DNA from: an uncultured Phycisphaerales bacterium
GTDB taxonomy: Bacteria; Planctomycetota; Phycisphaerae; Tepidisphaerales; Tepidisphaeraceae
Assembly: GCA_963844715.1 (NCBI GenBank)
Contig: CAWJPJ010000008.1
Span: forward strand, 256,001 to 320,000
Direction of reading: 5' to 3'
Length of the DNA: 64,000 nt
Position numbers: made by a program. Below, one piece after another: positions 30,001-33,000 of this stretch. The stretch's first letter is position 1, and every line of letters begins with the position of its first letter.

Positions 30001-33000
30001 CGGCGTTGGATTGCTTTAGTTCCGCGTGTGTTTTGATTGCGCAGACGGCCAAGTTTTCGATCAGGGGGATCGCGTCTTGAGAGAGGGAGTCGGAGTCGTT
30101 CACGGGGACGATCGCGGCGTCGACGCTCTTTTTGGCGTCGATCTGTTGGGCGTTTTTCATTTCGCGGATGGTGGAGATGATTTCCTGGAGACGAGCGAAG
30201 GGTTCGAGAGATTCCTGGTCGATTTGGCCGGGTTTGGGCCAGGGGGCGCGGATGAGGCGGTGGCCGGGTTTGTAATCGGGGGCGGGGCGGGTTTCGTTGA
30301 GGCGGCTCCAGATTACCTCGGTGATGAAAGGGATCATGGGGTGCATGAGGCGGAGGGAGCCGTCGAGGATTGTGGCGAGGATGTTTGAGGTCTGGCCGGC
30401 GGCGGCGGGATCCTTTAGCGCGGGCTTGGCGGCTTCTACGTACCAGTCGCAGAAGTCGCCGTAGAAGAAGTCGTAACAGATTTTGGCGTATTGGTCGAAA
30501 CGATAAATTTCCAGGGCGGCGTTGGATTCCTGGACGGCGCGATTGAAGCGGGAGACGATCCAGCGGTCGGCCAGGGTCCATTTGGTCGGGTCGGGATTTT
30601 CGGGGGGGATTTTTTCCAGGTTGGGGATGACGAAGAAGTTGGCGACTTGCCAGATTTTGTTGCAGAAGCGGGAGCCGAGGTCGAATTTGTCGGAGGTGTT
30701 TCGGCCCTGGGCGTCGCGCTTGACGGGCATGCGGACGTCCTGGGTTTCTGTGGCCATGTGAGTGAGGGTGAAGCGGAGGGCGTCGGCGCCGTGGGTTTCG
30801 ATGACGTCGACGGGGTCTACGCCGTTGCCTTTGGATTTGCTCATGCGCTCGCCGTGGCCGTCGAGGATGGTGGGGTTGATGGCGACGTGGAAAAAGGGGA
30901 TTCCGAGTTCCTTTCCCCTCTCCCTGTCTTCCGATAGTTTCGGCACGAGTGGGTGAGGGGCGGTCTGCGCATTTCCGGCGGTCTGCCCCTCACCCCCACC
31001 CTCTCCCAGAGTACTGAGAGAGGGAGTAAGAGGGGGGCGGTGGCCCATGTTGTACATGCCGGTCATGACCATTCTGGCGACCCAGAGTGTGATGATGTCT
31101 CGGCCGGTGAGGAGGACGCTGGTGGGGTACCATTTTGCTAAATCCGGAGTCCGGTCGGGCCAGCCTAGTGTGCTGTGGGGCCAGAGGGCACTGGAAAACC
31201 AGGTGTCTAGGACGTCGGGGTCCTGTCGAAAGTTAAATGTTTCCTCTAAAATTCTCTCGATATCCTCGTGCCCGGGCGGAACGCACATGAAGCATTCCTT
31301 CTTTCCCTCGGTTTGCATCAGGATCGTAGGGATTTCGACACCGTTTATCGCGTGACCCTTAAGGATCCCTGATTCGCCATCGTTGTGCAAAAGAAAGTCC
31401 CTAAGGCCATATTGAGCAAAGGTGCCGCGCCACACCGGAATCCGATGGCCCCACCAGAGTTGTCTGGAGATTGGCCAGTCGCGTTTTTCGCCTAGCCAAC
31501 TTAGATACTGTTGCGCGTGGCGTTCTGGGAAGAATTTTATTGTGCCGTTGCGGACGACCTCGAGGGCGGGCTCGGCGAGGGGGGCCATTTTTACGAACCA
31601 TTGGTCGCTTAGGTAGGGTTCGACGGGGGTTTTGCTGCGGTCGCTGTGGCCTACTTGGGTTTCGTAGGGTTCTTCTTTTTCTAAGAGGCCCAGGGCCGTC
31701 AGGTCTTCGACGACTTTTTTTCTCGCGTGGTCTCGTTTCATTCCTGAATACGCGCCGGCGTTTTGGTTTAGGGTGCCGTCCGGGTTGAGGATGTTGATGA
31801 GGTCGATCTGGTCGGGTTTGTTTTGGTGGCGTTGCCAGACTGCGTAGTCGTTGGGATCGTGGGCGGGGGTGACTTTGACGACGCCGGTGCCGAATTTTGG
31901 GTCGACGAGGATGTCGTCGGCGATGATGGGGATTTTTCTTTCTGTGAGGGGGAGCTTTACGGATTTGCCTATGGCCCAGTTCCAACGCGGGTCTTCGGAA
32001 TGGACGGCGACGGCGGTGTCGCCGAGCATGGTTTCGGGGCGGGTTGTGGCGACGGTCATGAATTTGTCTGTGCCGTCGATGGGGTAGCGGATGTGCCAGA
32101 GGCTGGTCTTTACCGTTTCATGGTAAATCTCGTCGTCGGAGATCGAAGTTTGTAAGTGCACGTCCCAATTGACGAGGCGTTTGCCTCGGTAGATTAGGCC
32201 GTCTTTGAAGAGTTTGAAGAAGGTTTCTCTAACGGCTTTGGCGAGTTGGTCGTCTAGGGTGAATCTTGTGCGGGACCAGTCGCAGGAGCAGCCGAGGCGT
32301 TTGAGTTGTTCCAGGATTCGGTCGCCGTATTGTTGTTTCCAGGTCCAGATTCTTTCGACGAGGGCTTCGCGGCCGACGTCGTGGCGGGTTTTGTTTTCTT
32401 TTTCCTTTAGCTGCTTTTCTACGACGGCTTGTGTGGCGATGCCGGCGTGATCGATGCCGGGGATCCAGACGGTGTTGAATCCGCGCATGCGGTGGACGCG
32501 GGTGAGGATGTCCTGGAGGGTGTTGTTGATGGCGTGGCCGAGGTGAAGGGCGCCGGTGACGTTGGGGGGAGGGATGACGATGCTGTAGGGGGAGCCGGGG
32601 GCGTTGGGGTCGGCGGTGAAGCAGTTTTCGTCCAGCCAGATTTTGTAGATCGGGGCTTCTATGCTGGCGGGGTCGTAGGTTTTGGAGATGGGGGCGGTCA
32701 TGGGTTCGTAAATGTTACTGGATAACTATGGGTGAAAACCAGAAACCGGAAACCCGAATGAAGAATCAGGCGAAAACCCGAAGCCCGAAACCAGAATGAC
32801 GAATCAAATCCGAATGACTGAATGACCGAATGGGCTATCGGCGGGGCGAATGCTATGGGTCATTCGGGAATTCGGGTTTGATTCTGGTTTCGGGTTTCGT
32901 CATTCGGATTTAGGTATTAGGCGTTTGCCTACGGTTTGTCTTATTCCCAACGCCTTGAGGTATCGCCGGCGCAATACGGTGCGCTTTCGTTCGATTTCTG

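Follow-up and report, generated by a model that had tools for sequence, protein, structure and literature searches.

The valS locus and its insert

We analyzed a 64,000-nucleotide stretch of one contig (the window) from a soil planctomycete of the Tepidisphaeraceae, in which the gene for valyl-tRNA synthetase (ValRS) holds an in-frame insert built of palindromic repeat arms. The features of the window that matter here are as follows, with the basis of each call in parentheses.

29768..32701, minus strand: valS, valyl-tRNA synthetase, 977 aa, single copy, unbroken frame (ORF, Pfam, PDB match, tblastn, AlphaFold, and Foldseek)
30902..31042 (approximate), minus strand: in-frame insert in ValRS loop S3, residues 554-600, net +46 aa
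30987..31030, plus strand: standard BoxC/TM-type hairpin arm in the insert (pattern and profile search)
30914..30962, plus strand: long-loop arm variant in the insert, inverted relative to the standard arm (BLAST matches to intergenic copies in the same genome)
32051..32083 (approximate), minus strand: second hot loop, S1, in the ValRS editing domain, empty here at 11 aa
63050..63090, plus strand: degenerate hairpin arm in the ORF of a 470-aa membrane protein (62074-63486), a weaker case with no Pfam family

Directly downstream of valS is a PDDEXK_3 nuclease gene (29354-29737, minus strand). Genes of this PDDEXK_3-like (GxxExxY) kind are presumably flanked by short tandem repeats resembling some of those seen in ValRS loops. 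The window also contains an oxidoreductase-like gene (28169-29312, minus strand) that is split over two frames, likely by an assembly indel, a small retroviral-type aspartyl protease gene (27455-27910, plus strand), and more long-loop hairpin arms at about 9334, 22118, and 24739.

Loop S3 lies between a helix that ends at residue 552 and the strand that precedes the KMSKS-type motif. The flanks of the insert both aligned to Thermus ValRS (1gax), and the alignment broke between them at query residues 560/602 versus 1gax residues 515/511. Measured from anchor to anchor, the loop is 63 aa here versus 17 aa in its basal form, a gain of 46 aa. At the DNA level the insert consists of two inverted arms and a short spacer; the folding of this region surpassed that of 200 of 200 shuffles (z -3.2). 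The standard arm has one mismatch to the three-block TM pattern and a first loop of 8 nt. Contigs of separate short-read assemblies from 3 public DNA runs of one study (one of which may be the source sample of the genome) matched the insert and both junctions, with 0 differences over 30589-31033, 0 over 30963-31113, and 1 over 30887-31037. Joints in this comparison came from other organisms, at 85% likeness, and were discarded; no RNA run was listed as containing the sequence. The valS insert is genuine, and valS is the one host gene here that is both unbroken and checked against other assemblies.

An AlphaFold model of ValRS built with 77 family sequences had a mean pLDDT of 88, with values below 50 only at residues 562-587 and 438-444 and a helix at 589-599, and its best structural match by Foldseek was 1gax (TM 0.85 by target). 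This run was used in place of one with 22 partly truncated rows, which had a mean pLDDT of 66.8, left the catalytic core unresolved, and was uninformative. The insert is thereby predicted to form a disordered loop on a ValRS fold that is itself confidently modeled, and it is presumably translated within the enzyme.

The hairpin repeat and DUF559 genes

A strict pattern search found 82 hairpins in 72 elements in this genome (2 in a shuffled genome), and a profile search with the standard and long-loop arms found 182 elements. The standard arm matches the three 9-nt blocks of the BoxC/TM repeat, one pyrimidine-rich and two purine-rich, and has a 3-nt second loop; TTA is the commonest triplet in this loop and CCG is present. 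There were 62 exact three-block copies with first loops of 8, 10, or 12 nt, and no copy in this genome had the first loop of 3-6 nt that PMC4666352 gives for the E. coli consensus. These sequence features mark the hairpin as a variant of the BoxC/triplex (TM) repeat with a longer loop. Derivatives with two arms or one are dispersed, chiefly in intergenic DNA, and inverted arms are present in the elements.

Only 13 of the 182 elements (7%) lay within frames that are coding-like on both sides, compared to about 49% interior coding DNA, and genes are therefore avoided or purged of copies; with the stricter pattern, 8 of 72 elements were intragenic. The 13 hosts are ValRS, AlaRS, TsaD, QueA, DnaE2, an aminotransferase, a type ISP restriction-modification protein, a ketosynthase, two TPR proteins, and three proteins without a Pfam family. 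Two of them are at the following loci (L and G numbers are our handles for loci and genomes).

L229:115-1296 (G000:C4): QueA, a tRNA-modifying enzyme, with a degenerate arm in frame
L098 (G000:C6:1094500-1100500): dnaE2, which holds hairpin inserts at two places and is frameshifted several times

AlaRS and TsaD are each encoded once and have inserts that are in frame locally; their frameshifts lie away from the insert, near the N-terminus in AlaRS and near the C-terminus in TsaD, and DnaE2 spans several frames. The frameshifts in all three are probably assembly indels, and for dnaE2 the other reading is a pseudogene. AlaRS also has a second stretch, of about 74 codons (L199, G000:C7:1405904-1406127), that is absent from congener G082. 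The first-pass annotation had placed in-frame hairpins in ValRS, AlaRS, and TsaD, and all three were found again; its segment lengths agree with ours up to a constant anchor offset. Its figure of 15 genes was roughly right (13 by the profile, or 13-14 with the second DnaE2 insert, and fewer by the stricter pattern), and its description of the hairpin as the commonest palindromic repeat of the genome was not borne out, given that 12-mers of heptamer arrays are more frequent (133 versus 70).

Each of the 3 DUF559 genes found here has inverted hairpins on either side. The same was true of nearly all DUF559 loci examined in the family (44 loci, 2 of them unparsed, with up to 3 mismatches allowed), where one hairpin lies about 170 nt ahead of the conserved motif and the other about 240 nt past it, a geometry that is regular across dozens of genomes. 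Among 121 family genomes, placed in the Tepidisphaeraceae by their source labels, the exact hairpin pattern was found in 82 (0-1 in reversed controls) and DUF559 in 73, and the two distributions overlap imperfectly in both directions: G017 (59 hairpins) and G032 (56) are rich in hairpins without a DUF559 match, and G034, G057, G062, and G102 have DUF559 without the exact pattern. MurF (G016) and HsdM (G012) each contain the complete hairpin-DUF559-hairpin unit in frame, and in other fusions the unit precedes a Sua5/TsaC protein (G059) or a gamma-glutamyl cyclotransferase.

L137:337-2367, L139:1040-3157, L116:541-1863, and L141:1984-2925: loci with a complete DUF559 module in MurF or HsdM, or fused ahead of Sua5/TsaC or gamma-glutamyl cyclotransferase

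None of the 14 matches to long proteins containing DUF559 was a tRNA synthetase, which is weak evidence. A long repeat with terminal inverted ends was also found in 29 identical copies in G000 and is probably an active insertion sequence.

We think it probable that the valS insert is a non-autonomous, two-armed derivative of a selfish element, and that the loops it occupies undergo turnover as landing pads. The full element would consist of a hairpin, a DUF559 nuclease gene, and an inverted hairpin. The nuclease, which has the Vsr fold, would nick the hairpin or the DNA next to it, and the arms would then be copied to new sites through repair or recombination; this mobilizing role of DUF559 is one that we infer from the arrangement of the sequences. 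In essential genes, the surviving copies would be those that keep the frame, avoid the stop phase, and land in a surface loop, where they would be translated as disordered segments. A loop once opened would serve as a neutral landing pad in which resident repeats nest, replace each other, and are deleted. Turnover of this kind would explain why the same few loops change so often, and the content of the ValRS loops does differ between close relatives.

It is unlikely, in our estimate, that the hairpins instead spread without DUF559, by triplex- or hairpin-induced slippage and recombination or by a RAYT-type transposase acting in trans, with DUF559 as a hitchhiker. Holder et al. 2015 (PMC4666352) connect the TM repeats of E. 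coli with local instability and report no mobile-element association, and this genome has 5 matches to Y1 transposases. The hairpin-rich genomes that lack a DUF559 match also fit such spread; however, these genomes are incomplete. The regular bracket around DUF559 and the insertion of the whole unit into MurF and HsdM argue against it, and the Y1 domains that do occur in ValRS are flanked by a repeat other than the BoxC-type hairpin. At the DUF559 loci examined, the hairpin flanks DUF559, whereas REPtron repeats flank a Y1 HUH transposase, and no GTAG/CGTC tag at the stem-loop end was evident in the unscored listing of strict-pattern hairpins.

Loop content across the family

ValRS was read in 90 of the 121 genomes searched, comprising the 30 best matches and 60 from the match table (G002 enters the counts as one non-carrier row). 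At least 8 extra residues were present at S1 in 41 of 86 parsed genes and at S3 in 46 of 88, and one or both loops were extended in 58 of 90 genomes. With anchors chosen regardless of frame, the loops were in frame in 86 of 86 genes at S1, 88 of 88 at S3, and 80 of 81 at a third loop, S4. The hairpin was found at S3 in 14 of the 88 genomes, at S1 in 6, and at S4 in 2, for 20 genomes overall. Automatic hairpin flags at S1 (G008 and G110) and S4 (G015) proved false when inspected, and these counts exclude them; the long open ValRS frames of G064 and G114 were upstream read-through without inserts. No target-site duplication, which MITEs combine with terminal inverted repeats, and no fixed junction was evident by eye among the 14 hairpin inserts at S3, a point against the reading of the insert as a copied element derivative. 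The median hairpin total per genome was 61.5 in the 20 carriers and 1.5 in the 70 others, groups in which kin are not independent. A cultured member, P0068 (named Fontivita pretiosa by its source), carries such a ValRS loop.

The remaining ValRS inserts, which were assigned to repeat types by eye without formal classification, appear to be several unrelated types: various REP-like inverted pairs, along with arrays of 7-9-nt units that are sometimes nested within a hairpin pair. Nesting is seen in the G008 insert, a hairpin plus heptamer that has an intergenic look-alike in this genome. In two genomes (G094 and G005), an entire transposase domain of the Y1 (IS200/RAYT-like) type, flanked by repeats, lies in frame at S4.

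L085:376-4272 (G094): Y1 domain in ValRS loop S4
L074:426-4187 (G005): Y1 domain in ValRS loop S4
L077 (G046): Y1 domain in ValRS loop S4, frameshifted

The loops that receive the hairpin thus also take up other repeats and whole transposase domains, and they are general hot spots rather than specific to DUF559.

The history of the S3 hairpin was followed on a tree of 62 ValRS cores with insert columns removed, from which one fragment and the 27 rows that form a second clade were excluded. On it the 14 carriers were scattered, with 11 changes, at least 8 of them forced by strong branches; 54 of 500 shuffles had as few. A single-clade origin was rejected (p 1e-57), a result that rules out only one gain without losses. 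The core of the long-loop arm is present in 45 copies here, 4 in congener G082, 1 in each of two other genomes, and 0 in 117 genomes, among them congener G008. The ValRS and AlaRS inserts of this genome both have this arm, with small differences, and other carriers have the standard arm. The long-loop arm is nearly private to this lineage, and the ValRS and AlaRS copies were therefore made recently or overwritten within it.

TsaD was sampled at 50 loci, 20 of them chosen for split or long matches, and the sample is therefore enriched. The 49 loci that could be parsed were all in frame; by eye, 10 held the hairpin and many more held other repeats. Reading phases differed among the TsaD carriers, with the second arm seen in all three. 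AlaRS was inspected in 46 genomes and could be read in 45, of which 5 carried the hairpin (one with a frameshift) and both congeners were basal. The AlaRS carriers had identical phases for both arms, and 4 of the 5 fell in one clade, so that one gain followed by losses remains plausible for this gene.

These data support repeated activity at permissive loops. A single ancient hairpin insertion per gene, inherited vertically with many losses or erosions and no recurrent insertion, seems to us improbable, and in its strict form it is contradicted for ValRS and TsaD. It does draw on the parsimony counts, which do not separate gain from loss, on the S3 carriers, which mostly have the same phases and C-terminal residues, and on the uniform AlaRS carriers. 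Against it stand the absence of this genome's arm variant from 117 of 120 relatives, the three second-arm phases in TsaD, the hairpins at S1 and S4 as well as S3, and the other repeats and Y1 domains in the same or neighboring loops. Fresh insertion into an empty loop and early seeding followed by replacement and loss are indistinguishable by these data. Different repeat types at S3 end in the same three residues at the C-terminal end of the loop, and the basal loop is without them, which suggests that the loop was opened once, early on, and not by many separate insertions. Because of these common residues, and of the same phases in AlaRS carriers that come mostly from one clade, we favor an early opening, after which repeats nested, replaced each other, and were deleted time and again, with fresh insertion in some cases.

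The first-pass annotation had proposed repeated insertion at permissive loops, with hairpins absent in close relatives. The scatter of carriers on the tree, the TsaD phases, and the lineage-private arm agree with repeated activity. As for close relatives, the ValRS loop is empty in G082, but G008, the other congener, has a hairpin in this loop.

Selection on the peptide itself is suggested by the reading phase of the purine-rich arm, with the caveat that the counts are of non-independent events: in 29 pattern hits, the Gly/Pro/Glu-rich phase was used 28 times (one of the 28 being a false hit to another repeat), the open Arg/Val-rich phase once, and the TGA phase never. The preference lies between two open phases. 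That the loops were selected for a host function, such as mRNA structure tuning translation or decay, or a new protein surface, is nevertheless very improbable. Extended ValRS loops are widespread (over half of the genomes read), and 4 of the 13 intragenic hosts here (ValRS, AlaRS, TsaD, and QueA) act on tRNA. One insert type at S3 (for example, L008-L012) has a constant 35 residues in 11 of its 13 carriers, which are clustered on the tree (6 changes versus 11.9 when shuffled); it looks derived from a heptamer array and is possibly a domesticated helix. However, the loops vary freely in sequence and, up to 145 aa, in length, and sister genomes lack the loop altogether. An artefact of assembly or ORF calling, a worry that the first-pass annotation had raised and for which the frameshifts in alaS, tsaD, and dnaE2 speak, is scarcely credible as the general explanation: it is refuted for the intact, contig-matched valS, and similar inserts occur in many independent assemblies.

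Known repeats and significance

To our knowledge, the BoxC/TM repeat has been described since the 1990s without a known mover. In the accessible text of PMC4666352, the TM repeat of E. coli K-12 is always intergenic and has no link to mobile elements. The BoxC/PIT/TM repeats described there resemble the present hairpin in their three 9-nt blocks, second-loop triplets, and inverted pairs; they differ in the shorter first loop (3-6 nt versus 8, 10, or 12 nt here), and, as far as that text goes, intragenic copies and DUF559 brackets occur only here, where 13 of 182 elements lie in coding-like frames. The Vsr/DUF559 group of PD-(D/E)XK nucleases includes a homing endonuclease of a group I intron (PMC3424549), and the fold is thus one already used by a selfish homing element; no intron or intein was seen here, and the insert stays in the predicted protein. 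The consulted portion of that review lists neither lateral transfer nor a repeat link for the group.

Repeats that enter genes in frame are already known. The Rickettsia palindromic elements (RPEs) were reportedly described by Ogata et al. in 2000 and 2002. As summarized in PMC10969869, RPEs lie in frame in unrelated housekeeping genes and add peptide loops to their products. The hairpin behaves likewise, being in frame in conserved genes, absent from orthologues, and, by structure prediction, in a fold-compatible loop; the likeness to these approximately 150-bp elements is one of behavior only. The present repeat differs in being shorter and GC-rich, in having a free-living host and a candidate nuclease partner, and in that one loop receives various repeats across a family. 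Di Nocera et al. 2013 (PMC3733652) likewise report in-frame GTAG/CGTC REPs, both singles and dimers, within genes for DnaE2, tRNA synthetases, and tRNA modification, mostly at different sites of orthologous genes. The REPtrons treated there match the present system in their in-frame host genes, in repeats that flank a small partner gene, and in common inverted dimers. They differ in the partner, an HUH tyrosine transposase versus the PD-(D/E)XK protein DUF559 here, and in that inserts recur here at fixed loops and whole Y1 modules occur in ValRS.

Outside subscription journals and supplements, we found neither the DUF559-BoxC link nor such loops in print; the genome tables of Holder et al. and Additional file 3 of Di Nocera et al. 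could list cases within genes or from planctomycetes. It is possible, and we propose it tentatively, that BoxC-type hairpins and DUF559 form an undescribed class of autonomous mobile element, an analogue of REP/RAYT with a Vsr-fold nuclease, which in the Tepidisphaeraceae would occupy the same fixed protein loops of essential genes as REP/Y1 modules and short tandem arrays do, all of them serving as interchangeable, unspliced cassettes.

The association gives the BoxC/TM repeat a testable candidate mobilizer and DUF559 a testable substrate. It also extends peptide-adding repeats of the Rickettsia type to a series across a whole family, in which essential enzymes show dozens of gains, losses, and replacements at recurring loops. 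Such loop inserts, together with in-frame DUF559 and Y1 domains, can mislead annotation and the phylogenies of aminoacyl-tRNA synthetases.
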